Source: Elusimicrobiota bacterium | Lineage (GTDB): Bacteria; Elusimicrobiota; Elusimicrobia; UBA1565; UBA9628 | Direction of reading: 5' to 3' | Length of the DNA: 64,000 nucleotides | NCBI GenBank assembly: GCA_016182905.1 | Contig: JACPFR010000052.1 | Location: 6,739-70,738 of the forward strand | Part shown: piece after piece, positions 8,455 to 42,395 of the stretch | Position numbering within the stretch: position 1 is the stretch's first letter | How the letters are laid out: every line of letters starts with the position of its first letter | Program-made: the position numbers and the translations under genes | The notes under the pieces: generated by a model | Seen by the model: the letters and a program-made list of their open reading frames with translations, nothing else | Told to the model about the DNA's origin: nothing | Database searches by the model: none

Positions 8455-8455
8455 G

Positions 8456-14569: not shown

Positions 14570-15439
14570 CTACTCGACGCGCAGAGCGGGGCCCTTGGAG
14601 GGCGGCAGGAAGGCCGACACGGCCTCGCCGCGCGTCGCGGGCATCAGGCCGACGACGACGCGCTCGGGCGCCACCAGCAGCGCCTTGGCCAGGCGGCGGC
14701 GGAGCGCCTTCGCGCGGGCCTGCGTGACCTTGCCGCGGACGTCCTTCGCGGCGAGCTCGAGCTTGTAGTCGCCGTCGGCGCGCGGCTCGCCCAGGCGCAG
14801 GCGGCTGGCGAAGGCGTCGATCCAGGCGCCGGACTCCTTCGTGAAGTCGGCCTTGCCGTCCTCGAAGAGGAGCGCGGCGTCGGCCTCGAGGCGCGTCTCG
14901 CCCGCGTACTCGCGGCGCGTGAACGACTTGAGCGGCACTGGGTCGCTCTCGACGACGAACGCCCGCCCCGCCCGCCGCCCCGTGAAGCGGTAATGGTACG
15001 CGCGCCCGGCGACGACGGCCAGTCGCCCGTCGGGCCCGCCCCCGTCCCAGTCGATCTTCTCGTTGAGCATGCCCACGCCGTCGGACTTCCAGACGATGTC
15101 CCCCTCGTTGTCGAGGACCTCGAAGCTCCACTCGTCGTACACCGCGACGATGTTGGCCGGCGACAGCGCCAGGAACGGCGGCTCGGGGAAGGGGCGCTGG
15201 AAGCGCGCCACGTCGCCGCCGGCGCGGATGCGCGCGGCCGCCGGGGCCGAGGCGCCGCGTCCGAGCGACAGCGAGCGCAGGACCTCGTCGATGACGGGCT
15301 TGGACGCGGTCGGCGGCGACACCTGGACTCCCGCCGAGCCCGAAGCCCGGGCCTTGATCGTCATGTCCTGCGAGAGCTCCGACTTGGACGGGGCGCTCCA
15401 GGCGGGAAGCGCGATCAGCAGCAGGAGCGCGGCGCTCAT
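14570..15439 (-). CDS. secreted hypothetical protein, last gene of the ExbB-ExbD-ExbD operon
   Basis: Signal peptide MSAALLLLIALPAWSAP. The start overlaps the upstream exbD stop. No recognisable catalytic motif. Confidence 0.6.
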   Translation of the reverse strand: MSAALLLLIALPAWSAPSKSELSQDMTIKARASGSAGVQVSPPTASKPVIDEVLRSLSLGRGASAPAAARIRAGGDVARFQRPFPEPPFLALSPANIVAVYDEWSFEVLDNEGDIVWKSDGVGMLNEKIDWDGGGPDGRLAVVAGRAYHYRFTGRRAGRAFVVESDPVPLKSFTRREYAGETRLEADAALLFEDGKADFTKESGAWIDAFASRLRLGEPRADGDYKLELAAKDVRGKVTQARAKALRRRLAKALLVAPERVVVGLMPATRGEAVSAFLPPSKGPALRVE

Positions 15440-15864
15440 CTCTTCGCCGGCTCCGTCGCCAGCGCGATCTGCGCGGCTCCCGCGGACTTGGCGACGCCGA
15501 TCAGGCGCTGGACGGTCCGGTAGGGCACGGACTTGTCCGCGCGGATCAGGACGATCGAGCCGTTCTTCTTGTCCACCTCGCGGCGCAGGTCGGCGGCGAC
15601 GGTGTCCCAGGAGGAGCCGGCGGCGCGGACGGACAACGTACCATCAACGGCATACGTCAAAGCGATGGTGAGCTCCTGGTTGGGCAGCGCCGAAGCGGGC
15701 GGCAGAGCGACGGGGAGCGTCGGATAGGCGAGCAGCGGCGCGGTCACGAACAAAATGACGAGCAGCACGAGGCTGATGTCGATGACCGGGATGATGTTCA
15801 CCTCGGTGACGGGCTCGGGCTCCGGCGAGTTGGCCCGCATCCGCAGCAGCGCGTACTTGGCCAT
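15436..15864 (-). CDS. exbD: ExbD/TolR-family biopolymer transport protein
   Basis: EVNIIPVIDISLVLLVILFVTAPL is a typical ExbD TM segment. 142 aa. Confidence 0.88.
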   Translation of the reverse strand: MAKYALLRMRANSPEPEPVTEVNIIPVIDISLVLLVILFVTAPLLAYPTLPVALPPASALPNQELTIALTYAVDGTLSVRAAGSSWDTVAADLRREVDKKNGSIVLIRADKSVPYRTVQRLIGVAKSAGAAQIALATEPAKR

Positions 15865-16319
15865 CAGCGCGCCTCCGGGTCGACGACCTGCACGAGGGCG
15901 ACCGTGCCCCCCGCGGCCTGCACCGCCTCGAGGGCGGCGATGACCTGGCCGTGCGCGACCTCGAGCTCCGGCGAGACGAACACCTTGCGGTCGGTGCGCA
16001 CGGAGAGCTTGAGCTTGAGGAACTCGGTGAGCTCGGAGCCGGTGGCCATGAGCCGGCCGTCCATCACGAAGCCGAGCGCGGTGACGCCGAGCACGACGAC
16101 GGCCTCGGGCTCGCGCATGGTCAGCAGCTCGACCTGGGTCGGCAGGGCGGCCTCGGCCTTCGCGGCGGCGGCCTGCACCTTGAGCATGGACTGGGCCGCC
16201 ATCGGCGAGAGCACGAGCAGGATGATCAGGAGCACGAGCGAGACGTCGGCCAGGGGCACGACGTTGACGTCGGAGATTGGCGCCGCCTCGTCGTCCTTAT
16301 GAAACGGGCTTCCCGCCAT
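15864..16319 (-). CDS. exbD: ExbD/TolR-family biopolymer transport protein (second copy)
   Basis: DVNVVPLADVSLVLLIILLVLSP... 151 aa. There is a 1-nt start/stop overlap with the next gene. Confidence 0.88.
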   Translation of the reverse strand: MAGSPFHKDDEAAPISDVNVVPLADVSLVLLIILLVLSPMAAQSMLKVQAAAAKAEAALPTQVELLTMREPEAVVVLGVTALGFVMDGRLMATGSELTEFLKLKLSVRTDRKVFVSPELEVAHGQVIAALEAVQAAGGTVALVQVVDPEAR

Positions 16320-16929
16320 GGTCCTCCAGCAGCTGCGCCATCTCCAGGACCCACAGGTCGGCGGTGTTCAGGCGGTGGCGCGCCGTGAGCGTGAAGTAGT
16401 TGTAGAACAGGGCCGCGACGACGGCCAGGCCGATGCCGAAGGCCGTGGCGACGAGCGCCTCGGAGATGCCGGCCGCGACGACGGCGGGCCCGCCCGCCCC
16501 GGCGGCGGACAGGTCGTGGAAGGCGCGCATGATGCCGAGCACCGTGCCCATCAGCCCGATCAGCGGCGAGATGAAGCTCGCCGTGCCGAACAGGCCGACG
16601 CGGCGGTTGAGCCCCAGGCTCAGGCGCTGGCGGTAGAGCTGGAACGCCTCGACGAGCTTCTCCGTGTTCGACGTCTCGAGCGCGATCAGGCGGGCGATGG
16701 CCTCGCCCATCAAGGTCGTGTCGCGGCGGGCGATGGCGATGGCTCCGGCCTTGTCCCCCGCCTCGAGGCGGTCGCGCACCCGCTCCCACATCGCGGTCGG
16801 CATCTTTTGAGCGAACCAGTAAGAGTAGATCCGCTCCAGGGCCTGCGCGAAGATCGCCAAAGACAGCACCAGCAAAATCGGCATCGCGATGCTGATCTTC
16901 AGCATCTCCACAAAGGTCATTCCGCTCAT
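16297..16929 (-). CDS. exbB: MotA/TolQ/ExbB proton-channel protein
   Basis: Three TM spans and a conserved C-terminal half (FISPLIGLMGTVLGIM.AF......GISEALVATAFGL.VA). ATG at 16929 (MSGMTFVEM) was chosen within the longer ORF. Confidence 0.87.
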   Translation of the reverse strand: MSGMTFVEMLKISIAMPILLVLSLAIFAQALERIYSYWFAQKMPTAMWERVRDRLEAGDKAGAIAIARRDTTLMGEAIARLIALETSNTEKLVEAFQLYRQRLSLGLNRRVGLFGTASFISPLIGLMGTVLGIMRAFHDLSAAGAGGPAVVAAGISEALVATAFGIGLAVVAALFYNYFTLTARHRLNTADLWVLEMAQLLEDHGGKPVS

Positions 16930-17051
16930 GGTCGCAAGTATAGCGGAGGGGCGCGGACCTGACAAGCCCGGTCCTGTTAAGGAATAGGCCTTCCGCGGGG
17001 CCCCGCGTAGGCCCGACGGCCCCCGACGCAAGGCGCCCGGCGGGCTATCCT

Positions 17052-17477
17052 ATGGCCATGAAGATCACCGCCCTCGCCGTCGCGCTCCTGACAGCGGCCT
17101 CCGCCCTCCCCCTGCGCGCCCAAGTGAACGCGGCGCCCCAGCCGGCGCCCGTCGAGAAGCCCAAGCCCTCCTGCCCCTGCGACAGCTCGAATTTCAAGCC
17201 CCTCACCGACAAGGCCCGCGCCGTCGAGGCCTACTGGGACGCGCGCCGCTCCTACCGCTCCGCCCGCACCATCGCCGGCACCGCGGCGCTGTTCGCCATG
17301 TTCTCCCGCAACGGCGGCCTCATGAACGAGGCCCAGAACACCTTGTCCGACGCCTCGTCCAGGCTCTTCTCCGCCCGCGCCAAGGCCGAGCAGCTCGGCG
17401 CCCTCAAGGTCACCGGCGACGACCTCGACGGCGCCATCGAGATCAAGCTCCGGAAAGGCGTCGACTACACCCTGTAA
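17052..17477 (+). CDS. secreted hypothetical protein
   Basis: Signal peptide MKITALAVALLTAASALPLRAQ. 141 aa with no recognised domain. Confidence 0.5.
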   Translation: MAMKITALAVALLTAASALPLRAQVNAAPQPAPVEKPKPSCPCDSSNFKPLTDKARAVEAYWDARRSYRSARTIAGTAALFAMFSRNGGLMNEAQNTLSDASSRLFSARAKAEQLGALKVTGDDLDGAIEIKLRKGVDYTL

Positions 17478-17478
17478 A

Positions 17479-17550
17479 CGGTGTCAGGCTCGCAAATTCG
17501 TCAAAATCCGGAGTGCCCGGGAATTCAACGAATTTGCGAGCCTGACACCG
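17479..17550. terminator. long perfect hairpin between convergent genes (bidirectional terminator candidate)
   Basis: 23-nt perfect arms, cggtgtcaggctcgcaaattcgt (17479-17501) and acgaatttgcgagcctgacaccg (17528-17550), with a 26-nt loop. It fills the whole gap between the stops at 17477 and 17552. Confidence 0.55.
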
Positions 17551-17551
17551 A

Positions 17552-19936
17552 CTACCTCACAAGGGATTTGTCGCTGGAGAGGGACTGGAGGCGCTTGCGG
17601 GCGGTTTCGAAGGTCTGGGAGCCGCGCTCGGCGCGCTTGATCACCTCGGCGTAGAGCGGCGCGGCGGACTGGGGCTTGTCCTCGAGCTCGAGCATCAGCC
17701 CCAAGCGAAGGAGCCCTGACAATCGCGCGGCGTCGTCCTTGGGCGAGAGGGCGCGCAGGCGCTCGTAGGCGTTCTTGGCTTCCTTGATCCTCTTGCGCCG
17801 CTCCTGGAGACGGCCGAGCGCGTACAGGGCTTTCATGCGCTCGTTGGTCCCCGTCGCGCGGGCGTAGGCGTCGGCGGCGCCGGACAGGTCGCCGCGGTCC
17901 TCGCGCAGCTTCGCGATCTGCGCCCAGGCCCAGGACGCCTTCTCGTGCCTCGGGAACTTCGTCGTGAAGCCGACCCAGGCCTTCTCGGTGTCGCGCTCCT
18001 TGCCGGCCTTGGCGAGCGCGAGCGCGCGGTTGTAGGCGGCGTCGGCGGCCTCGGCGCCGGTCCCCCCGACCTTGGCGTAGGCGGCCGCCGCGCCCGCGGC
18101 GTCGCCCTCCTCGTAGAGCATCGCGCCCAGGGCCATCGCGGCGTCCTGCGCGCGCGGGTGCTTGGGGTGCACGGCCATGAACTTGCGGTACGCGCCCGCG
18201 GCGTCCTCGGTGCGGTGGAGCTGGCGCAGGGACTCGGCGCGGTAGTAGCGCGCGTCGCCGATGTTCGCGGCGTGCGGATTATCTTCTATGTGGCGCCGAA
18301 AAAGCTGTTCCGCCGAGTCCCAATCTTCTTTCTTATAGGCCTTCGCCGCGAGATCCCATCTGATCTGGGACGCCAGCTGATGGTTCGGATACCGCGCGAC
18401 GAGGCCGGGCAGATCCGGGTCTTCCTTGTCGTTCTGCCAGGTGGCGACGAGGAGCAGGCCCTCGACCGCCTTCGTCTTCGGCCCGGGCTGCGCGCCCTCG
18501 AGATATCTCTTGTACAGCGGGATCGCCTCGGCCCAGCGCTTCTTGTTGTAGTGGACCTGCGCCATCAGCAGCAGCGCCTCGCGGTCGGCGTCCTGGGCCT
18601 CGGAGGCGCGGCCCATCTTCTGGTAATGGCCGAGCGCCTTCTTGGACCGCCCGAGGTCCGTGTAGAGCTGGCCGAGCTGAAGGTGCGCGTCGGCGGCGTA
18701 GGCCGAGCCGGGGTGGCGCGAGGCGAGGTCCTCGAACACCTCGGCGGCCTCCTCCGGGCGCTCGAGCTTCTTGAGGCACAGGCCGCGCTGGTACAGCGCC
18801 TGCGCGCGCAGCGGGCTGTCGGGGAAGCTCCCGGTGAAATTCTGATAAGCCCGCTCGGCTTCGCCGAGCTTCTTGGACCTCAGCAGCAGGTTCGCCTCCG
18901 ACAGGGCCGTCGACTCGCGCAGCTCGACGAGGCCCCACTTCGCGGCCTCGTCGCCGGCGCGCTTGAGCGCGTCTCGCGCGCGGTCGGTCCGGCCCTTGCG
19001 GTCCCAGTCCGCGGCGATCGCGGCGAGCGCGTACGCCTTCACCGGCGAGTCCTGCCCCGAGGCGGACACCGCGCGGTAATGCTCGGCGGCGTCTTCCTTG
19101 CGCCCCATGCGGTCCTCGGCGGCGGCGCGCCAGACCTGGGCGAGCGCGAGCCAGCGGTCGGAGACGGCGGCCGCGTCGGCCTCCGGGATCATCTTGAGCG
19201 TCGCCTCGTCGAGCCCGAGCGAGGCCAGCGCCGCGCCGATGAGATGCAGGGCCTTGTACTTCAGGGCGGGGTTCGAGCCCGCGCCCAGCGGCTTCAGGAA
19301 GCGCACGGCCCTCGCGGCCTCGCCGCGGCGCAGGTGCAGGGCGCCCGCGGCGAGGTCGACCTCGGGGTTCTCGGGGCGCGACGGGTAGCGGCGGTGGAAG
19401 TCGTAGGCCTCGGCGAGGGCTGCCTCGGCGCGGCCCTCGTCGATCGCGGCGCGCAATCTCCCCAGCGCCTCCTCGGCGGAGGAGGAGGCCATGGCCGGGA
19501 CGTAGGGCTCGTCGGCCTCCGCCGGGGCCGAGGCGTTATTGTCGGGGAGCGCGGTCAGCAGGTTGCGGCCCTTCTGCGCCCACTCCGTGTCGGGATAGCG
19601 CTGGATGAGGATCTCGAGGTTGCGCCGCGCCTCGCCGTACTCGCCCTTGGACAGCGAGATCTCGGCGCTGCGGTAATGGCTTTGCGCGGCGATCTCCCCT
19701 TTCGGGCCGCGGACCTTGGTGCCGAGGTCGAGGGACTTCTGGAAGGTCTTCTGAGCCCCGCGCACGTCGCCGCCCTGGAGCTGGAGCTCGCCCATGACGG
19801 CCTGGGCCTCCATGTTCATCGAGTTCCAGCCGTCGCGCGAGGGCGCGTCGTCGGTCGGCTTATATTTAGGAGAAGCGGCCCGCGCCGCCGAGGCGGCCAG
19901 GCAAAAGGCGAAGACGACGCTCGCGGAGCGCCTCAT
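17552..19936 (-). CDS. large secreted TPR-repeat protein
   Basis: Signal peptide MRRSASVVFAFCLAASAARA from the ATG at 19936 (the ORF extends to 19972). Many 34-aa A..Y..A......A...F-type repeats follow. Confidence 0.78.
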   Translation of the reverse strand: MRRSASVVFAFCLAASAARAASPKYKPTDDAPSRDGWNSMNMEAQAVMGELQLQGGDVRGAQKTFQKSLDLGTKVRGPKGEIAAQSHYRSAEISLSKGEYGEARRNLEILIQRYPDTEWAQKGRNLLTALPDNNASAPAEADEPYVPAMASSSAEEALGRLRAAIDEGRAEAALAEAYDFHRRYPSRPENPEVDLAAGALHLRRGEAARAVRFLKPLGAGSNPALKYKALHLIGAALASLGLDEATLKMIPEADAAAVSDRWLALAQVWRAAAEDRMGRKEDAAEHYRAVSASGQDSPVKAYALAAIAADWDRKGRTDRARDALKRAGDEAAKWGLVELRESTALSEANLLLRSKKLGEAERAYQNFTGSFPDSPLRAQALYQRGLCLKKLERPEEAAEVFEDLASRHPGSAYAADAHLQLGQLYTDLGRSKKALGHYQKMGRASEAQDADREALLLMAQVHYNKKRWAEAIPLYKRYLEGAQPGPKTKAVEGLLLVATWQNDKEDPDLPGLVARYPNHQLASQIRWDLAAKAYKKEDWDSAEQLFRRHIEDNPHAANIGDARYYRAESLRQLHRTEDAAGAYRKFMAVHPKHPRAQDAAMALGAMLYEEGDAAGAAAAYAKVGGTGAEAADAAYNRALALAKAGKERDTEKAWVGFTTKFPRHEKASWAWAQIAKLREDRGDLSGAADAYARATGTNERMKALYALGRLQERRKRIKEAKNAYERLRALSPKDDAARLSGLLRLGLMLELEDKPQSAAPLYAEVIKRAERGSQTFETARKRLQSLSSDKSLVR

Positions 19937-20700: not shown

Positions 20701-22122
20701 TCAGGAGGTGAAGCGGAAGGTGACGCGGCCCCAGACCTCGGCGGCGCCGGACTTGGCGGCGACGGGCTGGAAGCGCCAGCGGGCGAGGGCCTTGAGGGCG
20801 CGCGTGTCGATGTCGGGGAAGCCCGAGGTCTTCGAGATCACGGCGCCGGGCTTCACCGAGCCGTCGGGCAGGACCTGGAAGCGGACGGTGACGGTCAGGT
20901 CGAGGTTGCGGGTCGCGACCCAGTCCGGGCTCGTGGGCGCCACGCGCGCGAGGATGCGGCGGTCGCCGACCGGGCCGTCGACCGAGAAGGACACGCCTCC
21001 GCCCTCGGGGCCGACGCCGCCGCCGCGCGCCTTGGAGTCGAGGAGGTCGGCGCCGCCGCTGCCGGCTTTGTCTCCGGGGTCGGTGGACTCGGCCAGGGCC
21101 GCGGCCGCGCCGGCCTTGCGCGCGCCGGCGAGCTCGGCCTCGCCCCCGCCTTTTCCCCCGCCCTCGCCGGAGTCGGACTCGCCGAAGGCGCCGCCGTCCC
21201 CGCCCTTGCCCGCGACGGGGCCTCCCGCGGCGGGGCGGCCCTTGCGGGCCGAGCCGCGGCCACTATTAACGTTGGAGGCGTCAGCCGACAACGCTTCGTC
21301 GGGGTCGGCCATCGTCGCGAGCGCCGATGAGAGCTCGGCGCGCTTGGCGGCCTTGGCCGCCTTGGCCTCGGCGGCGAGCCGCCTCCGCTCGGCGAGCGCG
21401 GCGGCGCGCGCCTCGGCGGCCTGCCTCGCGGCCTCCGCGCGGCGCTCGGCCTCGGCGCGGGCGATCGCGGCGCGGCGCTCGCGCTCGGCGGCCTGCTGGG
21501 CCGCGAAGCGGTCTCGCTCCGCCTTGGCCTCCGCCGCCCTCTCGGCGGCGATGCGCCTCTTCTCGGCCGCGAGCTCGATGGCGGCGGCCTTCGCGGCGGC
21601 CGCCTTCTCCGCCTCCACGGCGCGGGCGGCGCGGTCGCGCTCGGCGCGCAGGCGCTTCGATTCGGCCTGCGCCTCGCGCGCGAACCTCACGGCCTGCGCG
21701 TCCGCCTTGGGCCCGGCCAGCGGGCGGGGTTTGGGCGCGGCCTTCGCTTTGTGCACGGTCGTGCCGGGCTTGTTCACCTTGGACTTGACCGCGGCCGGCT
21801 TCTTCACCGGCTTGGGCTTGGGCGGCGGGTCGACCGCGCCGCGCTGGACCTTCTCGCGCTCGAACTCGCCCGGTCCGTGCTTCGGCGGCAGGTTGGAGCC
21901 GTCGCCGCCCGGGCTCAGCTCGGGGGCCATCACCGGCTGGACGATGGGCGGCAGCGGTATGTCGGCGACGAATTCGATGGGGACGGCCTTTTCCGGCGCC
22001 TTGAGCCCGCCCCACTCGATGACGGGGTTGAAGGTCAGCAAGGCGCCGTGCGCGATGACGGCCGCGAGGTAGAACGGCGCCTCGTGGAACCAGTCGGGCT
22101 CGATGTGCTCACGCCATGACAT
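20701..22122 (-). CDS. TonB/TolA-family energy transducer
   Basis: N-terminal anchor (FYLAAVIAHGALL). A KPKP segment is followed by ~110 aa of Ala/Glu/Arg/Lys helical repeats (AERAAEAKAERDR...) and a Gly-rich linker. The C-terminus is TonB-like (V.V.F.V..DGSV....I.K.SG....D..A..A...W.F.P). ATG at 22122 was chosen inside the 843-aa ORF. Confidence 0.82.
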   Translation of the reverse strand: MSWREHIEPDWFHEAPFYLAAVIAHGALLTFNPVIEWGGLKAPEKAVPIEFVADIPLPPIVQPVMAPELSPGGDGSNLPPKHGPGEFEREKVQRGAVDPPPKPKPVKKPAAVKSKVNKPGTTVHKAKAAPKPRPLAGPKADAQAVRFAREAQAESKRLRAERDRAARAVEAEKAAAAKAAAIELAAEKRRIAAERAAEAKAERDRFAAQQAAERERRAAIARAEAERRAEAARQAAEARAAALAERRRLAAEAKAAKAAKRAELSSALATMADPDEALSADASNVNSGRGSARKGRPAAGGPVAGKGGDGGAFGESDSGEGGGKGGGEAELAGARKAGAAAALAESTDPGDKAGSGGADLLDSKARGGGVGPEGGGVSFSVDGPVGDRRILARVAPTSPDWVATRNLDLTVTVRFQVLPDGSVKPGAVISKTSGFPDIDTRALKALARWRFQPVAAKSGAAEVWGRVTFRFTS

Positions 22123-22242
22123 TCTCTCGAAGGATAGCCTGCCGCGCCTTGGGGCGCAAGGCTTCGGCTGTTTCCGGAAACAGTCGAAGACGACTCGCGC
22201 CGGCGCGAGTTCCTTCCGGGCTGAATCCGATATAATCGCGTC

Positions 22243-23346
22243 GTGGACCAAACGCGGAAGTGGCTGCACTCCCCCGCCTTCGACCTCGGCTGGTTCGCGG
22301 GGCCGCCGCTGCTGGCCGCGCTCGCCGTGCTGCTGATCCCCGCGCTGCGCGCGGCCGAGACCCCGGCCTGGGGCTGGCTCGTCTTCGTCGTCTTCATCGA
22401 CGTGGGACACGTGTACGCGACCTTGTACCGCACCTACCTCGATCCGGTCGAGTTCCCCCGCCGGCGCGCGCTGTACGTGCTCCTGCCGCTGGCCTGCTGG
22501 CTCGGCGGGGCTCTTCTGTACCGGCTGTCGGCGTTGGCCTTCTGGCGCGCGCTCGCTTACCTGGCCGTCTACCACTTCGTGCGGCAGCAGTACGGCTTCA
22601 TGCGCGCGTACTCGCGCCTCGAGGGACGCAAGGAGCCCTGGGAGGCGCGGCTGGAGGCCGCGGCGATCTACGCGACCATGCTCTATCCGCTCGTGTATTG
22701 GCACGCCGACCCCGCGCGGAAGTTCTGGTGGTTCGTGCAGGGCGACTTCGTGAGCCTGAACCGGCTCGCGGGCCCGTGGGCGGGCGGGCTGTACGCCGCG
22801 GTGCTCGGCGCCTTCTTCGGCCGCCAGCTCGCGCGGCGCAAGGTCGGCCTCGAGGTCCATCCCGGAAAGGTCGCCGTGATCGCGTCCACCGCCGTCGCCT
22901 GGTACGTCGGCATCGTCGCGACGAACTCCGACTTCGGCTTCACGATCACGAACGTCGTCTCCCACGGCGTTCCTTATTACGCCTTGGTCTGGCTGTACGG
23001 GAACCGGTCGTGGAAGGACGGGAGCTGGCGCGAGACCTGGCACAAGCCGGCGTATCTTTTCCTCTTCGTCGGACTGCTCCTGGCCGTCGGCTACGCCGAG
23101 GAGGGCGTGTGGGACGTCCTCGTGTGGAAGGAGCACGCGGAGGTCTACTTCGGCGCGGCGGCGGACTGGGCGCCGTCCGGCGCGCTCGCGGCGCTGCTCA
23201 TCCCCCTGCTCGCGCTGCCCCAGGCGACGCACTACCTCCTCGACGCCTGGCTGTGGCGCTTCGACGGCTCGAATCCGGGCCTGCGCGAGAAGATTCTCGG
23301 CTTGACCGAGGGAGTCCCAAGCGCGATAATCCCTGTAACCCGATGA
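22243..23346 (+). CDS. polytopic membrane protein of unknown function (first gene of the DUF4178/DUF350/SpeE-like operon)
   Basis: About 8-9 hydrophobic spans with conserved-looking polar motifs (DVGHVYATLYRTY, YHFVRQQYGF). Its stop overlaps the next start (ATGA). Confidence 0.65.
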   Translation: MDQTRKWLHSPAFDLGWFAGPPLLAALAVLLIPALRAAETPAWGWLVFVVFIDVGHVYATLYRTYLDPVEFPRRRALYVLLPLACWLGGALLYRLSALAFWRALAYLAVYHFVRQQYGFMRAYSRLEGRKEPWEARLEAAAIYATMLYPLVYWHADPARKFWWFVQGDFVSLNRLAGPWAGGLYAAVLGAFFGRQLARRKVGLEVHPGKVAVIASTAVAWYVGIVATNSDFGFTITNVVSHGVPYYALVWLYGNRSWKDGSWRETWHKPAYLFLFVGLLLAVGYAEEGVWDVLVWKEHAEVYFGAAADWAPSGALAALLIPLLALPQATHYLLDAWLWRFDGSNPGLREKILGLTEGVPSAIIPVTR

Positions 23347-23969
23347 TCGAGCGCAAGTGCCCCGCCTGCGGCGCGATGGTCCCCTTCCGCGCCTCGATCA
23401 GCCTCCTGGCGGTGTGCCCGTTCTGCCGCAGCCTCGTCCAGCGCAAGGACCTCGACCTCGAGAAGCTCGGCGAATCCGCCCAGCTGCAGCCCGACGGCTC
23501 CCCGGTCCTGGTCGGCTCCCGCGGGAGCTACCGCGGCGCCGCGTTCGAGGTCGTCGGCCGGATGCAGCTCCAGACGCCCCGCGGCTTCTGGAACGAGTGG
23601 TGCCTGATGTTCGCCGACGGCCGCCAGGGCTGGCTCGGGGAGGCGCAGGGCACCTACGCGGTGAGCTTCGAAGCCGAAGCCGCCGTCCCCGCGCTCGCGG
23701 ACCTCGCGGTGGACGCGCGGGTCGAGATCCAAGGAAAGGCCTACCAGGTCCGCGAGATCGTCGAGGCCAAGTACCTCGCCGCCCAGGGCGAGCTGCCCTT
23801 CAAGCCGCCGCTGGGTGAGACCGCCCCCTCCGCCGATCTGATCGGCGAGGACGGCGCGTTCGGCACGCTCGACTACTCGGAATCGCCGGCCGTCGCGTTC
23901 GCCGGGGAATACCAGAGCTTCGAGGCCCTCTCCTTCACCGGGCTCAAGCAGATCGAGGGCTGGTCATGA
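23343..23969 (+). CDS. zinc-ribbon + DUF4178-like protein
   Basis: N-terminal CPACG...CPFC, then G..F.V.GR.Q.......WNEW...F.DG..GWL, which I associate with DUF4178. Confidence 0.7.
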   Translation: MIERKCPACGAMVPFRASISLLAVCPFCRSLVQRKDLDLEKLGESAQLQPDGSPVLVGSRGSYRGAAFEVVGRMQLQTPRGFWNEWCLMFADGRQGWLGEAQGTYAVSFEAEAAVPALADLAVDARVEIQGKAYQVREIVEAKYLAAQGELPFKPPLGETAPSADLIGEDGAFGTLDYSESPAVAFAGEYQSFEALSFTGLKQIEGWS

Positions 23970-24349
23970 GCGCGCGCTTCGACTGCCCCGCCTGCGGCGG
24001 TCCGCTGACCTTGCGCGCCGAGGGAGTCAGCGAGAGCCTCGCCTGCCCGCACTGCGCGGCCGTGCTCGACGCGAAGGATCCCCGCCATCAGGTGCTCGCG
24101 AAGTACCGCTCCAAGCTCGGGGTCACGCCGAAGATCCCCCTCGGCACGCGCGGCACTCTGCGCGGCGACCAGCTCGAGGTCATCGGCTTCCAGCGTCGGG
24201 CCGTGCGCTATTCGGGCGTGATCTACTCCTGGGACGAGTACCTGCTCTGGAACCCGTACAAGGGCTTCCGCTGGATGACGGAGTCGAACGGGCACTGGCT
24301 CCTGCTGAAGACCGTCGAGACCAAGCCGAAGGAAAGCCCCGGTGGCTGA
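23966..24349 (+). CDS. zinc-ribbon + DUF4178-like protein (short paralogue)
   Basis: CPACGG...CPHC, then G.LRGD.LEVIGF..R........W.EYLL.N...GF.W. Start/stop overlaps on both sides. Confidence 0.68.
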   Translation: MSARFDCPACGGPLTLRAEGVSESLACPHCAAVLDAKDPRHQVLAKYRSKLGVTPKIPLGTRGTLRGDQLEVIGFQRRAVRYSGVIYSWDEYLLWNPYKGFRWMTESNGHWLLLKTVETKPKESPGG

Positions 24350-25712
24350 GGACATGAAGTGCCCGAAGTGCCAGGCTCCGCTCGAGGCGGTCGAGATCGC
24401 CTCCGGCGTCGTCGCGCGCGCCTGCACGGGCTGCTCGGGCGTGCTGTACGAGGCGGACGACATCGCCGTGCCGCTGAGGCTGATCGGCCCGCGGCCCGCG
24501 CGCTTCGATTGCCCGCGCTGCCGGCGGCCGATGGAGACCGCCGACGCCTACGACGGCCAGATCGAGGTGGACCGCTGCCTCGCGTGCGCCGCGCTCTGGT
24601 TCGACGCCGGCGAGATCATGATCCTGCGCAAGCTGTCGGGCGTCGAGAACATCGCGGGCAAGAAGGGCGCCGAGCCTCCGCGGCCCGCGGCCGGGCCTGC
24701 CGCCGCCGCCGCGCCGGCGGCCGTTCCGGTCCCGCCGCTGCCCGAGGTCAAGGTCAAGGAAGGGAAGGTCCCGGTGCCGCCGGAGATGGAGGGCGCGCAG
24801 AACCGCGACGCCGAGCGCTCCCCCACCGTCGAGCTCGACGGCCGCCTGTACCGGCACTTCCAGTCCAGCATCCCGGTGACCACCGCCGTGCTCGGCGAGT
24901 TCCCGTGGGTCGCCAAGGTGGGCGACGCCGCGCGCTCTCGCGACTTCATCGCCCCGCCCTACCTCCTGTCCCAGGAGGTCACCGCGACGGAGTCGGTGTG
25001 GACCGCCGGCGAGTACGTCGAGCCCGAGGAGGTGTGGGCCGCGTTCTCCATGCCGGGCGCTCCGCCGGCAAAGATCGGCGTCGCCCCCGCCCAGCCGAAC
25101 CCGTGGGCCGGGGAGATGCCCTCGGTCTGGCGGATCTTCGGCCTCGCCGCGGCGCTGTGCGTCGGCGTCTTCGTCCTCGTCGAGGCGACCGCGTCCAAGG
25201 TCAAGGTGTACGAGGGCGGCTTCGACTTCTCGGCCGCCGACGCCGAGCGGTCGCGCGTCGGCGAGGTGTTCGAGGCGGCGGGCCGTACCTCTAACCTCGA
25301 GATCACGGTGGACACGAACCTCGATCAGCATTGGTCGTACGTGAGCATGGCGCTGATCGACGCCGACACCGACCAGGCCCTCGACTTCGGACGCGAGCTC
25401 TCTTATTACCACGGCTCCGACGACGGCGAGTCCTGGAGCGAGGGCGGCCCCCGCGAGACCTTCTACGTGCCGCGCGTCCCGCCGGGACGCTACTACCTGC
25501 GCGTCGAGCCGGAGACGGACGCGCCGCAGTTGAGCCTGCGGGTCTCCGTGAGGCGCGACGTGCCCCTCAAGCGCCTGCCGCTGATCGCGCTGGCGCTGCT
25601 CGTCCTGCCCGCGGTGTGGGCGGGCATGCGCCACGACTCGTTCGAGAACACGCGCTGGATGGAAAGCGACCACCCGCGCACGTCCTCGGACGACGAGGAG
25701 GACGACGAATGA
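24342..25712 (+). CDS. double zinc-ribbon + DUF4178-like + two-TM membrane protein
   Basis: Two CxxC...CxxC modules of the zf-TFIIB-like type (CPKC..C.GC.GVLYE; CPRC...VDRCLACAALWFDAGE). A P/A linker, a DUF4178-like block and two TM spans follow, with an acidic tail (SSDDEEDDE). Confidence 0.7.
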   Translation: MAEDMKCPKCQAPLEAVEIASGVVARACTGCSGVLYEADDIAVPLRLIGPRPARFDCPRCRRPMETADAYDGQIEVDRCLACAALWFDAGEIMILRKLSGVENIAGKKGAEPPRPAAGPAAAAAPAAVPVPPLPEVKVKEGKVPVPPEMEGAQNRDAERSPTVELDGRLYRHFQSSIPVTTAVLGEFPWVAKVGDAARSRDFIAPPYLLSQEVTATESVWTAGEYVEPEEVWAAFSMPGAPPAKIGVAPAQPNPWAGEMPSVWRIFGLAAALCVGVFVLVEATASKVKVYEGGFDFSAADAERSRVGEVFEAAGRTSNLEITVDTNLDQHWSYVSMALIDADTDQALDFGRELSYYHGSDDGESWSEGGPRETFYVPRVPPGRYYLRVEPETDAPQLSLRVSVRRDVPLKRLPLIALALLVLPAVWAGMRHDSFENTRWMESDHPRTSSDDEEDDE

Positions 25713-25891
25713 GCCGCTGGTACCGCTGGTACGCGCTCGCCGTCGCCGCCGCCTGCTCCTGGGCGCTCTGGACCGGGTGGTGGATGACGCCCGTCGAGCG
25801 GCTGACGGGCGTGCCGAAATCCGTCCGCGACAACCCCGGCTCCTACCGGGCCCATTATTCCGGCTATCGTCGATACTTCGGAGGCAAGTGA
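25709..25891 (+). CDS. 60-aa Trp/Tyr/Arg-rich single-TM micro-protein
   Basis: MSRWYRWYALAVAAACSWALWTGWW... Its ATG overlaps the upstream stop, and its TGA overlaps the next ATG (TGATG). Support comes from translational coupling only. Confidence 0.45.
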   Translation: MSRWYRWYALAVAAACSWALWTGWWMTPVERLTGVPKSVRDNPGSYRAHYSGYRRYFGGK

Positions 25892-26109
25892 TGAAGAGCA
25901 TACTGGACGTGCAGCACCTCGCCGGCGCGGTGATCTACTCGGGTCTCGGCGCGGCGGTCTTCTTCGGCTGGTTCGTGATCTTCGACAAGCTCACGCCGTA
26001 CGACCTGTGGCAGGAGATCGTGGTCAAGCAGAACCGGGCGCTGGCGACCGTCATGGCCGGGCTCTCGATCGCGATGGGCCTGATCATCGCGGCCTCCATG
26101 ATCGGCTGA
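25891..26109 (+). CDS. DUF350-family small membrane protein
   Basis: 72 aa with two TM spans and the block FD..T.YD...EI...N.A.A....G..IA..LI, as I recall for DUF350/YjfL-like proteins. Confidence 0.72.
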   Translation: MKSILDVQHLAGAVIYSGLGAAVFFGWFVIFDKLTPYDLWQEIVVKQNRALATVMAGLSIAMGLIIAASMIG

Positions 26110-26113
26110 CGCC

Positions 26114-27616
26114 GTGAACCTCGCGCTGTACGCCTCGGTCTTCATGGTCGCCACCTGCGGGCTCATCTACGAGCTCGTGGCGGGCTCGCTCGCGAGCTAT
26201 CTTCTCGGCGACACGGTCCTGCAGTTCTCGACCGTCATCGGGGCGTACCTGTTCGCGATGGGCGTGGGCTCGTGGCTGTCGCGCTTCGTCGGCAAGGGAC
26301 TGGCCGCGCGGTTCGTGCAGGTCGAGCTGCTCGTGGGGCTCGTCGGCGGCTTCTCCTCGACCTTCCTGTTCCTGGCCTTCGCGCACGCGGCGAGCTTCCG
26401 CGTGCTGCTGTACCTCGTCGTCTTCGTCGTCGGGACCTTGGTCGGGCTCGAGATCCCGCTGATGATGCGCATCCTGAAGGACCGGCTGGACTTCAAGGAC
26501 CTGGTGTCGCAGGTCCTGACGATGGACTACATCGGCGCGCTGTTCGCCTCCGTGCTGTTCCCCCTGCTGCTGGTGCCGAGGCTCGGCCTGCTGAACACCG
26601 CGCTCCTCTTCGGCCTGCTGAACGTCGGCGTCGCGGCCGCGACCTTGTACCTCCTGCGCGACGCGATCCCGAGCCGCGCGGGCCTGAGCGCGGCGTGCGC
26701 GGCGGCGGCCGTCGCCCTGACCTGCGGGCTCGCCTTCTCGGGCGAGATCGCCTCGCGCGCCGAGGGCGACATGTACGCCGACGAGGTGATCTTCAGCAAG
26801 GCCTCCCCCTACCAGAAGATCGTGCTCACGCGCTGGAAGGAGGACTGGCGCCTGTTCCTCAACGGCAACCTCCAGTTCAGTACGATGGACGAGTACCGCT
26901 ACCACGAGGCGCTCGTGCATCCCGCGCTGTCCTCCCACGCCGCTCCGCGCCGCGTGCTGATCCTCGGCGGCGGCGACGGCCTCGCCGCCCGCGAGGTCCT
27001 GCGCGACGAGCGCGTCGGCTCGCTGACCCTGGTGGACCTCGATCCGGTGATGACCAAGCTGTTCACCGCGCACCCCGCGCTGTCCGCCCTCAACGGCCGC
27101 GCGCTGTCCGACGCGCGCACCACGGTCGTCAACGCGGACGCCTACCGCTGGCTCGAGAAGAACGACCTCCGGTTCGACGTCGTCATCGTCGACTTCCCGG
27201 ACCCTTCGAACTACGCCGTCGGCAAGCTGTACACGACCGCCTTCTACCGCCTGTTGAGCCGGCGCCTGGCGCCGGGAGGGATCGTCACCGTGCAGTCCAC
27301 CTCGCCGCTGTTCGCGCGGCAGACCTATTGGACCGTCGTGACGACGATGGAGGCGGCGGGCTTCGCGACGCGCCCCTATCACGCCTACGTCCCGTCGTTC
27401 GGCGAGTGGGGCTTCGTCATCGGCGCGACCGCGCCGTACCGGATCCCGGAGAAGTTCCCCGCCGGCCTGCGCTTCCTGACGCCCGGCATCGTCCGCGGCA
27501 TGTTCGATTTCCCCGCCGACATGGCCCGCGTCCCGGCCGAGCCGAACCGCCTCGACACGCAGGTGCTCGTCCAGCATTACGAGCGCGAATGGGCCCGCAT
27601 CAGCCACGGCGGATGA
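26114..27616 (+). CDS. membrane-anchored spermidine-synthase-like polyamine aminopropyltransferase
   Basis: About 7 N-terminal TM spans, then an SpeE core: Y.DE....K.S.YQKIV.T........LFLNG..Q.S..DEY.YHEALVHP...VLILGGGDGLA.REVL....V...TLVDLDP...DA......FDVVIVDFPDP. GTG start. Confidence 0.85.
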   Translation: MNLALYASVFMVATCGLIYELVAGSLASYLLGDTVLQFSTVIGAYLFAMGVGSWLSRFVGKGLAARFVQVELLVGLVGGFSSTFLFLAFAHAASFRVLLYLVVFVVGTLVGLEIPLMMRILKDRLDFKDLVSQVLTMDYIGALFASVLFPLLLVPRLGLLNTALLFGLLNVGVAAATLYLLRDAIPSRAGLSAACAAAAVALTCGLAFSGEIASRAEGDMYADEVIFSKASPYQKIVLTRWKEDWRLFLNGNLQFSTMDEYRYHEALVHPALSSHAAPRRVLILGGGDGLAAREVLRDERVGSLTLVDLDPVMTKLFTAHPALSALNGRALSDARTTVVNADAYRWLEKNDLRFDVVIVDFPDPSNYAVGKLYTTAFYRLLSRRLAPGGIVTVQSTSPLFARQTYWTVVTTMEAAGFATRPYHAYVPSFGEWGFVIGATAPYRIPEKFPAGLRFLTPGIVRGMFDFPADMARVPAEPNRLDTQVLVQHYEREWARISHGG

Positions 27617-29208
27617 CCGGCCTCACTCGCCGGGAGTTCATCGGCGGGGCGCTCGCCGCGGCGGCGCTCGGCGCCTGCGGGGTCGAGCGCGGGATCCCGG
27701 GCGAGCTGCTCGGCCCGGACCACGCGCTAGGCCATAAGCTGCGCGCGGGCGGCTTCGCGCCGCCCTCCACGACGGAGCGCGTGCCCGTCGTGATCGTCGG
27801 CGGCGGGACGGCCGGGCTGTCGGCGGGCTGGAAGCTCCTCCGCTCGGGCGAGGGCGGCTTCGTGGTCCTCGACCTCGAGCGGCGCGCCGGCGGCAACGCG
27901 GCGTGGGGCGAGAACGAGGTCAGCCGCTATCCGTGGGGCGCGCACTACCTTCCCGTCCCCGGTCCGCGCGCGCGCGCGGCGAGGGAGCTGCTGCGCGAGC
28001 TCAAGGTCATCACCGGCGAGGGCGACGGCAAGCCGGCGTACGACGAGAGCGTCCTGTGCCACGCCCCCGAGGAGCGGCTCTTCCTCCACGGGCGCTGGCA
28101 GGAAGGGCTGTATCCGCGCCTCGGCGCGACGGCGGCGGACCTGGCCGAGCGGGACCGCTTCCACGCCGAGATCGCCGCGCTGCGGCGGCGCGTCGGCCGC
28201 GACGGCCGGCCCGCCTTCGCGATCCCGATGGAGAACAGCTCCCGCGACCCGGACCTGCTCGCGCTCGACCGGATCACGATGGCCGAGTGGCTGGAGCGGC
28301 GGGGCTTCCGCTCTCCGGGCCTGCGCTGGTACGTCGACTACGCCTGCCGCGACGACTACGGCGGCTCGCCGTCGGAGGTCTCCGCCTGGGCCGGCCTTCA
28401 TTACTACGCCGCGCGCGGCGAGGGCGAGGACGACCGGTTCCTCGTCTGGCCGGAGGGCCTGGGCTTCCTCGCGCGCAAGCTGGCCGAGGCGCTCGGCCCG
28501 CGCGTGCGCGGCGGGGCGCTGGCCTACGACGTCGCGCCGGACGGCGACGGCGTGCGCGTGGATTACCTCGACGCCGCGTCGGGCTCCACCCGGCGCATCC
28601 TCGCCAAGCGCGCGATCGTCTGCGCCCCCCGCTTCGCCGCGCGCCGCATCGTCGCGCCGCTGCGCGAGGACCGGTCGCCTTCGGGCTTCGCCTACGCGCC
28701 TTGGTTCATCGCGAACCTCACCGTGCAGGACCCGCCGGCCGGCCTCGGCGTCTCTCCCGCGTGGGACAACATGATCTACGGCGGGAAAGGCCTCGGCTAC
28801 GTCGACGCGACCCATCAGAGCTTCTCCCAGGACCGCCGCCGCCAGGTCTGGACCTACTACCTGCCGCTCGTGGGCGACCCCGACGCCCAGCGCGCCGCCG
28901 CGTTCAAGAGGAGCCTCGCCGAGTGGCGGGAGCTGTGCCTGAGCGACCTGGAGCGCGCGCTGCCGGGCCTGCGCGAGCGCGTGACGCGGCTCGACGGGTG
29001 GGTCTGGGGCCACGGCATGATCCTGCCGCGGCCCGGCTTCATCTGGGGCCCCGAGCGCGCCGCGGCGGCCAAGCCGATCGGCCCGATCCATTTCGCCCAC
29101 TCCGACCTGTCGGGCCTCTCGATCTTCGAGGAGGCCCAGGACCGGGGCATCCGCGCCGCCGAAGCCGTGCTGTCCGCCCTGGGCAAGCCCTATCGTTCCA
29201 GCCTGTGA
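27613..29208 (+). CDS. TAT-signal FAD/NAD(P)-binding oxidoreductase (amine-oxidase-like)
   Basis: RREFIGGALAAAALGAC is a twin-arginine signal with a possible lipobox Cys. VVIVGGGTAGLSAGWKL is a dinucleotide-binding fold. The start overlaps the SpeE-like stop. Confidence 0.78.
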   Translation: MTGLTRREFIGGALAAAALGACGVERGIPGELLGPDHALGHKLRAGGFAPPSTTERVPVVIVGGGTAGLSAGWKLLRSGEGGFVVLDLERRAGGNAAWGENEVSRYPWGAHYLPVPGPRARAARELLRELKVITGEGDGKPAYDESVLCHAPEERLFLHGRWQEGLYPRLGATAADLAERDRFHAEIAALRRRVGRDGRPAFAIPMENSSRDPDLLALDRITMAEWLERRGFRSPGLRWYVDYACRDDYGGSPSEVSAWAGLHYYAARGEGEDDRFLVWPEGLGFLARKLAEALGPRVRGGALAYDVAPDGDGVRVDYLDAASGSTRRILAKRAIVCAPRFAARRIVAPLREDRSPSGFAYAPWFIANLTVQDPPAGLGVSPAWDNMIYGGKGLGYVDATHQSFSQDRRRQVWTYYLPLVGDPDAQRAAAFKRSLAEWRELCLSDLERALPGLRERVTRLDGWVWGHGMILPRPGFIWGPERAAAAKPIGPIHFAHSDLSGLSIFEEAQDRGIRAAEAVLSALGKPYRSSL

Positions 29209-29261: not shown

Positions 29262-30269
29262 CTAGGGCGCCGAGGCCGCGCGCTCGCGGAGGGCCTTGAG
29301 CCGCCCCGCCTGGCGCGCGTAGCGCGCCGTCAGGAACGCGCCGTACAGCGGGATCCAGGCCGCCCTCCGTCCCTCGGTCTCCAGGCGCGCGATCGCGGCG
29401 CTCGTCTCCTCATCGACGGCGCGCAGGGCCGCCCTCCGCCGCTCCGGGTCGGGCCGGGCGCGCAGGGCCATGAGGCCGCGCGGCAGGTCGGCGGCGAAGC
29501 CGAAGTGATCCGACAGCGCGGGATCGAAGACGAGCCGCGCCTTCGCGTCGAGGCGCCCCGTCGGGAGCAGGACGTGGTCGATGCGCTTGGGCCGTCTGGG
29601 GTCGCCGCAGGCCTCCTTTCCCGCGGGCGCGCACGGGTCGTCCAGGCCGAGCAGGTCGAGGAACAGGTCGAACTCCCGGTCGCCGTGGCCCGAGTTCAGG
29701 TCGCCGAGGATCACGAACGGGCGGTCCTGCGACAGCTCGACGACGCCCTCGGCGAGCTCGAAGAGCTCGGTCATGCGGAGCATGCGATACCGGGTCTCGC
29801 GGTAATCGGCCAAGGTGTGCGCGGCGTAGAAGTCGAGCTCGCCCCACGGCGTCGCGACGCGCGCGAACAGGAAGCCCTTGCTCGGCACGGTCTCCCCCTG
29901 GAACAGGTGGCGCAGGGACGGCCGCACCGTGCCGAACGCGCGCTCCTCCGCGGCCAGGATGGGCCAGCGCGACAGGATGGTCAGGCCGGAGCGGAAGGCG
30001 ACCCGGCGAGGAAAGCGCGCGGCGTGAGGCAGGCCCGCCTCGCGCGCCAGCGCCGCGCTGTCGCCGTCGCGCCACAGCTCCTGGAGACCGACGACGTCGT
30101 AGCCGCCCGCCGCGATCTCCCGTCCCGCGGCCTTCATCCGCCGCGCCACCCCCGGATGCACGAGCGGGATGCCCGCCGCGTTGAAGGTCAGGACCTTGAT
30201 CGCCTTGGGCGGCGCCTCCGCCGCGCCCGCCAGCGACGCGGCGAGCAGGAGGACGGTCAGGGCCGCCAT
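29262..30269 (-). CDS. secreted endonuclease/exonuclease/phosphatase (EEP) family protein, sphingomyelinase-like
   Basis: Signal peptide MAALTVLLLAASLAGA. VLTFNAAG, VVGLQELW, GDLNS and IDHVL are EEP catalytic blocks. ATG at 30269 was chosen inside the longer ORF. Confidence 0.78.
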   Translation of the reverse strand: MAALTVLLLAASLAGAAEAPPKAIKVLTFNAAGIPLVHPGVARRMKAAGREIAAGGYDVVGLQELWRDGDSAALAREAGLPHAARFPRRVAFRSGLTILSRWPILAAEERAFGTVRPSLRHLFQGETVPSKGFLFARVATPWGELDFYAAHTLADYRETRYRMLRMTELFELAEGVVELSQDRPFVILGDLNSGHGDREFDLFLDLLGLDDPCAPAGKEACGDPRRPKRIDHVLLPTGRLDAKARLVFDPALSDHFGFAADLPRGLMALRARPDPERRRAALRAVDEETSAAIARLETEGRRAAWIPLYGAFLTARYARQAGRLKALRERAASAP

Positions 30270-42083: not shown

Positions 42084-42178
42084 GCCTAAAGTATAGCGGC
42101 GGCCATAGAGGCGCACATGGGGCGCGGGGCCTGGGCCCATCTAGGCCCTTGGGCCTAGGCCGGGGCGGCCGCGTACAG

Positions 42179-42187
42179 TGCTATAAT
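42179..42187 (+). promoter_or_regulatory. extended -10 promoter element (TGcTATAAT) for tRNA-His
   Basis: tgctataat ends 10 nt before the first tRNA nucleotide. Confidence 0.5.
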
Positions 42188-42196
42188 GTCGCCTCT

Positions 42197-42274
42197 GGTG
42201 GCCGTAGCTCAGCTGGTTAGAGCGCCGCGCTGTGAACGCGGAGGTCGGGGGTTCAAGTCCCCTCGGTCACCCCA
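42197..42274 (+). tRNA. tRNA-His (anticodon GTG) with encoded G-1 and CCA
   Basis: Cloverleaf read by hand. Acceptor gtggccg/cggtcac with an extra 5' G opposite discriminator C. D arm gctc-agctggtta-gagc. Anticodon arm ccgcg-ctGTGaa-cgcgg. T arm ggggg-ttcaagt-cccct. 3' CCA present. Confidence 0.9.
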
Positions 42275-42289
42275 GATTTGACGCGTCAA

Positions 42290-42329
42290 GAGGCCAGGGC
42301 TGAATTGTCAAGCCCTGGCCTCGCTTTTT
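42290..42329 (+). terminator. intrinsic terminator after tRNA-His
   Basis: gaggccagggct-gaattgtca-agccctggcctc, a 12-bp stem followed by gcttttt. Confidence 0.8.
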
Positions 42330-42395
42330 CGGGGATTCGCTCCGGCGCTTTCAGATCGCGGGTAGGTTCAGATCGGTGAACCGATTCCCCGGCGA

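Follow-up and report, generated by a model that had tools for sequence, protein, structure and literature searches.

The window analysed here, a 64,000-nucleotide (nt) stretch of contig JACPFR010000052.1 from an Elusimicrobiota bacterium, carries on its plus strand, at positions 22243–29208, an operon that is the Elusimicrobiota variant of a widespread inner-membrane system known from comparative genomics. The core of the system is formed by DUF4178 proteins, a DUF350 protein, a membrane-bound SpeE-type enzyme and a flavin amine oxidase, and with a little more belief than doubt we read it as an envelope module for aminopropylation and oxidation. The operon is composed of eight genes:

22243–23346, plus strand: g1 (G1), 367 amino acids, ten-helix inner-membrane protein, GTG start
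23343–23969, plus strand: g2, 208 amino acids, cytoplasmic zinc ribbon and DUF4178
23966–24349, plus strand: g3, 127 amino acids, zinc ribbon and N-terminal half of DUF4178
24342–25712, plus strand: g4, 456 amino acids, two TFIIB-type zinc ribbons, C-terminal half of DUF4178 and two transmembrane (TM) helices
25709–25891, plus strand: g5, 60-amino-acid microprotein with a single TM helix
25891–26109, plus strand: g6, 72-amino-acid DUF350 (YjfL-family) protein with two TM helices
26114–27616, plus strand: g7, 500 amino acids, N-terminal membrane domain and C-terminal aminopropyltransferase (SpeE) domain, GTG start
27613–29208, plus strand: g8, 531-amino-acid predicted lipoprotein exported by the twin-arginine translocation (Tat) system, with a flavin amine-oxidase/dehydrogenase fold

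Pfam and NCBIfam searches bear out the domain calls of a first-pass annotation of this DNA, namely DUF4178 in the three zinc-ribbon genes, DUF350, Spermine_synth together with several TM helices, and a flavin adenine dinucleotide (FAD) protein with a Tat signal.

The linkage of these genes was followed in a SpeE-anchored scan, for which the SpeE alignment served as the query, one genome was taken per species, and the neighbours at 80 loci were mapped with iterated hidden Markov models (HMMs). Counts were made at the 52 loci, from about ten phyla, that have at least 5 kb upstream and at least 2.5 kb downstream. DUF4178 lies near SpeE at 45/52 of these loci, DUF350 at 42/52 and the oxidase at 41/52, followed by Band-7 (32/52), the microprotein (31/52), S-adenosylmethionine (AdoMet) decarboxylase (AdoMetDC, SpeD; 30/52) and G1 (4/52); PspA is found at 0/52. 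Except for one Band-7 and one SpeD match, all of these neighbours are on the SpeE strand. The 80 loci belong to Acidobacteriota, Elusimicrobia, Gemmatimonadota, Beta- and Gammaproteobacteria, Myxococcota, Leptospira, Bacteroidota, Nitrospinota and Bdellovibrionota; Comamonas, Variovorax, Archangium and Hymenobacter are among the carriers that can be cultured. The genes had been proposed to form a conserved functional unit, with non-conservation of the linkage set beforehand as the refuting outcome, and the DUF4178, DUF350 and oxidase counts show the linkage to be conserved. Chance adjacency is ruled out by the synteny counts at these 52 loci and at the 23 G1-anchored loci described below.

At the level of gene order, all eight genes recur in unchanged succession in a second Elusimicrobia genome (SpeE 63% identical). 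Two other Elusimicrobia genomes (L015 and L036; SpeE about 63–64% identical) carry the split DUF4178 genes, the microprotein, DUF350, SpeE and the oxidase, with no G1 within 10 kb. The order in a Bryobacteraceae genome is Band-7, AdoMet_dc, DUF4178, DUF4178-TM, a 64-amino-acid gene, DUF350, TM-SpeE and Amino_oxidase.

The enzyme with the clearest chemistry is g7. It matches NCBIfam model NF002956 over its full length (672.5 bits; cut-off 472) and Pfam Spermine_synth (PF01564; 1.6e-34, 119.5 bits; cut-off 22.9) over residues 261–436, which are preceded by seven hydrophobic helices, in agreement with the earlier description of a SpeE-like catalytic domain fused to about seven TM helices. Its best solved relatives are SpeE of Thermus thermophilus (1UIR) and thermospermine synthase (6BQ2). 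Residues Q33, H64, D88, E108, D140, D158 and D161 of Escherichia coli SpeE, whose ligand and catalytic roles we take to be those given in UniProt P09158 / HAMAP MF_00198, align with Q234, H264, D288, D308, D342, D360 and D363 of g7, none of which varies among 15 homologues. The set takes in the Asp of GGGDG, the acid that binds ribose, and D-x-x-D with its proton-acceptor Asp. All positions for donor binding and catalysis in the E. coli enzyme are thus kept, as expected from the initial call of an aminopropyltransferase-like domain, and by its sequence g7 has an intact aminopropyltransferase active site. The N-terminal domain has invariant intramembrane carboxylates of its own (E20, D33, E71, E113 and D138), and TM1, TM3, TM4 and TM5 hold one invariant carboxylate each. 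Because g7 reaches 672 bits with NF002956/PRK03612 and 47 bits with the "fused MFS/spermidine synthase" model NF037959, it may represent a sister fusion family.

On which side of the membrane the SpeE domain lies is a puzzle. In 85 homologues of g7, the loops that emerge at one face of the TM domain contain a mean of 8.4 lysine and arginine residues and those at the other face 1.4; helix 7 is hydrophobic in all 85 and is followed by an acidic segment. From this loop charge bias and the positive-inside rule, the SpeE domain is therefore predicted to be on the periplasmic side, which is at odds with the fact that the donor, decarboxylated AdoMet (dcAdoMet), is made in the cytoplasm. Judged by gene names and the accession numbers in Ravi et al. 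(2024; mSystems 9:e00847-23, PMC11237479), Rv2597–Rv2601 of Mycobacterium tuberculosis appears to be the actinobacterial version of the system, and on the same grounds Rv2601 (speE) would be the counterpart of g7. In the M. tuberculosis EXIT export dataset, export of the neighbouring Rv2599 was detected in infected mice (fusions at 108, 129 and 136), and Rv2601, represented by 35 library fusions, was scored as exported at none of them (PMC5405230). Since not even the fusions in the loops of Rv2601 were scored as exported, the dataset is uninformative on topology.

The location of g8 is indicated by its N-terminus, MTGLTRREFIGGALAAAALGAC, in which a twin-arginine signal is followed by a lipobox cysteine (signal sequence MTGLTRREFIGGALAAAALGA-C; motif TRREFI...ALGA-C). 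The TIGR01409 Tat-signal model gives 17.2 bits with a cut-off of 16.7. Among 66 orthologues, the RR motif is present in 49 and the lipobox in 15, the latter being proteobacterial and myxobacterial. Taken together, g8 is predicted to be a Tat-exported lipoprotein. Its AlphaFold2 model (predicted local distance difference test, pLDDT, 88) has as top Foldseek matches a bacterial monoamine oxidase with putrescine bound, putrescine oxidase, monoamine oxidases A and B, and the spermidine dehydrogenase SpdH (E ~1e-24, TM-score 0.64/0.74), so that by its model the protein has a flavin amine-oxidase fold. Some database names present it as a CrtI-type desaturase, which it does not resemble in fold. An N-terminal GxGxxG FAD-binding Rossmann motif is recognized by Pfam NAD_binding_8 (2.4e-07); PF01593 gives no match to g8 at E<=0.01 and is annotated on many homologues at 50–85% identity. 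In a related Elusimicrobia genome (L001), genes for a copper amine oxidase and an M20/M28 peptidase are located a few kb downstream of the operon (14594–17835).

The three genes g2 to g4 are built around DUF4178. A complete domain is present in g2 (Pfam E 7.5e-12), in which the motifs CPxCGA...CxxC, WNEW, GELPF and a C-terminal EGW are conserved (alignment A5, 19 orthologues). A profile search of the PDB with DUF4178 returned matches to the zinc ribbon alone. In g3, the Pfam match covers positions 2–60 of the 136-position DUF4178 profile, and in g4 it covers positions 68–136, in addition to Zn_ribbon_TFIIB (3.8e-15). The order of elements in g4 is two TFIIB-type zinc ribbons, a Pro/Ala linker, the C-terminal half of DUF4178, a first TM helix (262–280), a beta-rich domain of about 125 residues, a second TM helix (407–425) and an acidic tail. 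The protein is thus predicted to span the membrane with domains on both sides, its beta-rich domain being periplasmic.

The Bryobacteraceae genome (L003) provides the reference for an unsplit gene, at 8231–9559, which encodes a single 442-amino-acid DUF4178-TM protein. Residues 17–134 of this protein are matched by g3 with 48% identity and residues 133–439 by residues 153–444 of g4 with 37% identity; because the two align to consecutive parts of it, g3 and g4 represent the fission of one ancestral gene in the middle of DUF4178. The downstream half, g4, has gained an extension of about 150 residues with the double zinc ribbon and the Pro/Ala segment, and the split is seen in all of the Elusimicrobia-type loci recovered. 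The identification of three zinc-ribbon/DUF4178 genes in the first-pass annotation is upheld by Pfam; that two of them are halves of one ancestral gene had been overlooked. The overlap of g3 and g4, GTGGCTGA, could permit a frameshift fusion.

Between these genes and g7 are two small membrane proteins. Of these, g6 is a DUF350 protein (Pfam E 1.8e-13). The micro-ORF g5, with a GC content at third codon positions (GC3) of 0.87, has orthologues of 57–70 amino acids that occupy the equivalent place at 44 loci spread over several phyla, and the family consists of an N-terminal TM helix and a tail of the form VP(K/R)S(V/I)R(D/E/N)NPG(S/A)YR..Y..Y.GGK. On this conservation, g5 is judged to be a genuine conserved gene. 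It is not present in the beta-proteobacterial, Myxococcota and Bacteroidota versions of the operon.

The first gene, g1, belongs to a large family that carries no name. Across 30 family members no Pfam match was obtained even at E<=5, and g1 has no match in NCBIfam or, by profile search, in the PDB. The AlphaFold2 model, which consists of ten helices (pLDDT 88, predicted TM-score 0.85), resembles no PDB structure in a Foldseek search (best E 0.5, TM-score <0.25). By these negative Pfam, NCBIfam, PDB profile and Foldseek searches, a known enzyme or transporter was ruled out. The family has more than 3000 homologues, none of them named, and an exhaustive search gave 2114 clusters at 50% identity. 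Fourteen polar residues, located within helices or at helix ends, are invariant: D53, H56, H111, R114, Q115, H154, D168, D230, N237, H241, E286, E287, H330 and D334. The lysine and arginine bias gives an N-in/C-in topology, with H154, D168, D230, N237, H241, E286 and E287 in the periplasmic half. As far as can be told from the sequences, G1 is an undescribed family of ten-TM proteins with invariant His, Asp and Glu residues. Two long G1 "fusion" proteins, one with an M1 peptidase and the other with LptD, look like merged gene calls because these partners disagree with each other.

Homologues of g1 were found in two large genomes (L004 and L005) beside the oxidase and TM-SpeE, in a context that also includes DUF4178, DUF350, PspA, CesT/Tir, DnaJ and a K+ channel. 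A G1-anchored metagenome scan yielded 80 loci, at which the common order is SpeE, oxidase, G1; G1 adjoins the oxidase/SpeE system in most of loci L088–L167. Counts were made at the 23 loci that have flanks of 4 kb to either side; 19 of them include SpeE, 19 include DUF4178 and 16 include the oxidase. Judged by these neighbourhoods, G1 is a recurrent accessory partner of the oxidase. The first-pass annotation had called it an unknown membrane protein and had missed this partnership. At one metagenomic locus (L122, 11310–12644), a twin-arginine class-V aminotransferase-like protein of the pyridoxal-phosphate type is encoded directly after G1; it would be another predicted periplasmic amine-handling enzyme.

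A mechanism can be outlined from these parts. By its sequence, g7 would use dcAdoMet to aminopropylate an amine acceptor, presumably one other than free putrescine. The acceptor would most likely be held at, or moved through, the carboxylate-lined TM domain, whose four intramembrane carboxylates may bind or conduct a cationic substrate. The product would be exposed at the periplasmic face and there be oxidised by g8, as is suggested by the predicted location and fold of this protein, and g8 would either strip off the aminopropyl group or convert its terminal amine to an aldehyde. G1, to which the gene linkage assigns a place beside the oxidase, might handle product, electrons or metal, a role at which we can only guess. 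On the cytoplasmic side, g2, g3 and g4 could form a zinc-ribbon/DUF4178 scaffold that is coupled by the two TM helices of g4 to the periplasmic beta domain, with g5 and g6 as probable small membrane subunits. Overall, the charge of the envelope or its polyamine decoration would be altered in a regulated way. In other phyla, the system seems to be connected with the membrane-stress machinery of Band-7 or PspA and with an AdoMetDC of its own.

Several points weigh against this reading. A step must be assumed whichever side the SpeE domain is on, namely flipping or export if it is cytoplasmic and export of dcAdoMet if it is periplasmic. The g8 protein itself passes a single Pfam model, NAD_binding_8. 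With HMMs built from L003 and L004, no AdoMetDC, Band-7, PspA or CesT was found in the 64-kb window, and donor supply and the link to stress are therefore unproven for this organism; an AdoMetDC could be encoded elsewhere in the genome. G1 occurs at just four of the SpeE-anchored loci counted, and four of the 23 G1 loci are orphans without the system, where its neighbours are mutually unrelated (photolyase, DAO, PhoD and Exo_endo_phos); it is therefore an accessory component and not part of the core.

Among the other explanations, ordinary polyamine metabolism would make g7 a membrane-anchored spermidine or thermospermine synthase and g8 a periplasmic catabolic oxidase, with the DUF proteins as passengers or regulators. 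That g7 passes the NCBIfam "polyamine aminopropyltransferase" equivalog model, that its nearest solved relatives make polyamines, and that putrescine oxidase and spermidine dehydrogenase are among the structural neighbours of g8 all agree with it. However, synteny with DUF4178, DUF350 and the microprotein across about ten phyla is not expected of passengers, and the carboxylate-lined TM domain fused to g7 has no role in soluble polyamine synthesis, so that we regard this explanation as quite unlikely. A peptide might instead be the target, with g5 or another protein accepting the aminopropyl group, for example on the lysine of the invariant C-terminal GGK, and the oxidase maturing or erasing the modified residue. 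The strong conservation of g5, the invariant basic tail ending in GGK and the constant position just upstream of DUF350 and SpeE would suit such a substrate, as would the "peptide--spermidine ligase" encoded in analogous clusters of the E. coli type. However, about 40% of the loci that are complete in other respects (those of beta-proteobacteria, Myxococcota and Bacteroidota) lack g5, which weakens its case as a universal acceptor, and by charge its tail is probably cytoplasmic whereas the oxidase is periplasmic; peptide modification thus appears to us improbable.

Lower still do we rate a pure sensor system, in which the SpeE-like domain and the oxidase would serve as receptors for polyamines or dcAdoMet, with the DUF4178/zinc-ribbon proteins relaying envelope stress and no net envelope chemistry. 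With two TM helices between its cytoplasmic and periplasmic domains, g4 has a sensor-like layout, and PspA or Band-7 stress machinery accompanies related operons. However, the SpeE catalytic residues are all invariant across the family, a dedicated AdoMetDC is co-encoded in 30/52 loci, and no output domain (helix-turn-helix, kinase or cyclase) is found in the operon, all of which make a purely sensory function very doubtful.

A bolder form of the envelope aminopropylation reading, to which we give minority weight and which we consider unlikely as a whole, places the entire catalytic apparatus outside the cytoplasm: the SpeE domain, the Tat-exported oxidase and a periplasm-facing His/Asp/Glu site of G1. 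Here the TM domain of g7 would carry dcAdoMet or the acceptor across the membrane, an envelope component would be aminopropylated and then converted or stripped by the oxidase, and G1 would represent a novel kind of metalloenzyme or electron acceptor within the membrane. Its basis is the lysine and arginine distribution in the 85 homologues of g7, the hydrophobic helix 7 and the acidic stretch after it. If true, it would be the first extracytoplasmic system for transferring an AdoMet-derived group.

For polyamine biology, the system bears on what a membrane-bound aminopropyltransferase might act on other than putrescine. The present analysis puts the oxidase, and possibly the transferase, at the periplasmic face and adds two unrecognised conserved parts, G1 and the RDNPG microprotein. 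If the target were a lipid or an envelope polymer, the system would be a new bacterial way to tune surface charge, which, if true, would be relevant to how bacteria withstand antimicrobial peptides and membrane stress.

As for the layout of the operon, the sequence contains eight consecutive plus-strand open reading frames (ORFs), where nine genes had been announced in the first-pass annotation, whose own list also sums to eight. Its description of the junctions is exact, with ATGA at 23343–23346, 23966–23969, 25709–25712 and 27613–27616, the 8-nt overlap at 24342–24349, TGATG at 25889–25893 and a gap of 4 nt before the GTG at 26114. All eight frames are taken to be coding because GC3 is 0.87–0.97 in each ORF, compared with a GC content of about 0.70 for the window. 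When genes were called roughly by GC3 across the whole window, about 24 of 50 junctions between genes on the same strand proved equally tight (<=4 nt); tight packing is the genomic norm, and the coupling within the operon is therefore real but not distinctive, which makes it weak evidence for the stoichiometric complex that had been argued from it. The nearest named homologues are found in metagenome-assembled genomes of Elusimicrobia, with identities of up to 82%.

The operon is flanked upstream by a divergent TonB-family (TonB_C) gene and downstream by a convergent Exo_endo_phos gene (29262–30269, minus strand). An 843-amino-acid minus-strand "ORF" at 20701–23232, overlapping g1, was dismissed as a high-GC artefact, the real gene being that of the 473-amino-acid TonB_C protein with a start near 22117. 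Exo_endo_phos genes also lie next to or near G1 homologues at two unrelated loci (L100, 5565–6569; L005, 17795–18580), a recurrence that may be a coincidence or a weak tie to phospholipid head-group chemistry. A perfect TATAAT hexamer is located at 22230–22235, 8 nt 5' of the GTG start of g1, and its position suggests a transcript that is leaderless or has a very short leader. A scan for promoters and terminators gave no signal above chance, and an Rfam scan of the window for riboswitches and leader RNAs returned one transfer RNA (tRNA) and nothing else. Elsewhere in the window, the GC content falls to 0.59–0.61 at 42000–50000, with about 0.70 around it, beginning at the tRNA gene (42198–42271). 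This stretch encodes an SDR protein, an AcrB-type RND pump (45366–48404) and a MarR regulator, and may be an acquired island.

Compared with known systems, the closest enzymes to g8 by structure are SpdH of Pseudomonas aeruginosa and the bacterial putrescine and monoamine oxidases, which have the flavin amine-oxidase fold in common with it (E ~1e-21 to 1e-24); the SpdH profile match starts at the extreme N-terminus of g8 (query positions 4–105). Identity to these enzymes is 14–22%, and g8 differs in that it is a predicted lipoprotein with no haem domain detected. The E. coli yjf cluster, mentioned in the first-pass annotation, is real and is composed of yjfI, yjfJ (PspA), yjfK, yjfL (DUF350), yjfM and yjfC (peptide--spermidine ligase). 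It ties the DUF350 protein YjfL to a polyamine-conjugating enzyme and to envelope-stress proteins, although DUF350 is the sole component shared with the operon under study. Its chemistry is that of the ATP-grasp peptide--spermidine ligase YjfC instead of an aminopropyltransferase. DUF4178, the oxidase and G1 are absent from yjfIJKLMC, whereas its PspA (YjfJ), YjfI, YjfK and YjfM are missing from the Elusimicrobiota operon.

A fusion like g7 has reportedly been described before. Li, Kurihara, Kim, Liang and Michael are said to have found, in 2019, thousands of genomes in which a class 1b AdoMetDC accompanies DUF350 and a fusion of a membrane protein resembling the major facilitator superfamily (MFS) with spermidine synthase (SpdSyn). 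The organisms with the fusion reportedly lack spermidine, the fusion is said not to complement E. coli speE, and an acceptor other than putrescine is said to have been proposed. The reported lack of spermidine and of complementation would favour the envelope reading and count against ordinary polyamine synthesis. By this account, that fusion and g7 both have a C-terminal SpdSyn-like domain on an N-terminal polytopic membrane domain, encoded beside DUF350; the reported clusters carry AdoMetDC, unlike the window.

The nearest known relatives of the operon as a whole are those described by Ravi et al. (2024), who reported a 7TM-fused spermine/spermidine-synthase-like gene, DUF350 (YjfL family), DUF4178 and a lipoprotein with PspA-CesT/Tir, in operons of the Shewanella AAN56744–AAN56747 type and in variants with Band-7, AdoMetDC and polyamine oxidase (PMC11237479). 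The assembly can therefore not be called unrecognised, since its core neighbourhood (7TM-SpeE, DUF350 and DUF4178, with AdoMetDC and polyamine oxidase in variants) was already in that paper. From comparative genomics without experiments, its authors, who cite the 2019 paper of Li and colleagues, proposed polyamine monitoring or "aminopropylation of other substrates", and the suggestion of an envelope-associated system for polyamine modification or turnover, made from our sequence, matches this proposal. The accompanying remark that no function has been characterised for the assembly agrees with a further 2024 paper, according to which these operons lack experimental data (PMC10948618).

The operons of Ravi et al. 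and the one under study share the fused TM-SpeE, the adjacent DUF350, DUF4178 and the amine oxidase, with the order and strand of these genes conserved. Unlike them, the window contains no PspA-CesT/Tir dyad, Band-7, AdoMetDC or Ctha_1186 lipoprotein, and the operon adds G1 at its head, splits the long DUF4178-TM gene and inserts the double zinc ribbon. The place of G1 differs as well, since in other lineages it usually comes directly after the oxidase. Neither G1 nor the 60-amino-acid microprotein turned up in term searches of the main text of Ravi et al. (PMC11237479). What the Elusimicrobiota operon adds to the known picture is the G1 family, the conserved microprotein, the fission of DUF4178, the predicted fold and Tat-lipoprotein nature of the oxidase, and the topology puzzle of the membrane SpeE enzyme.

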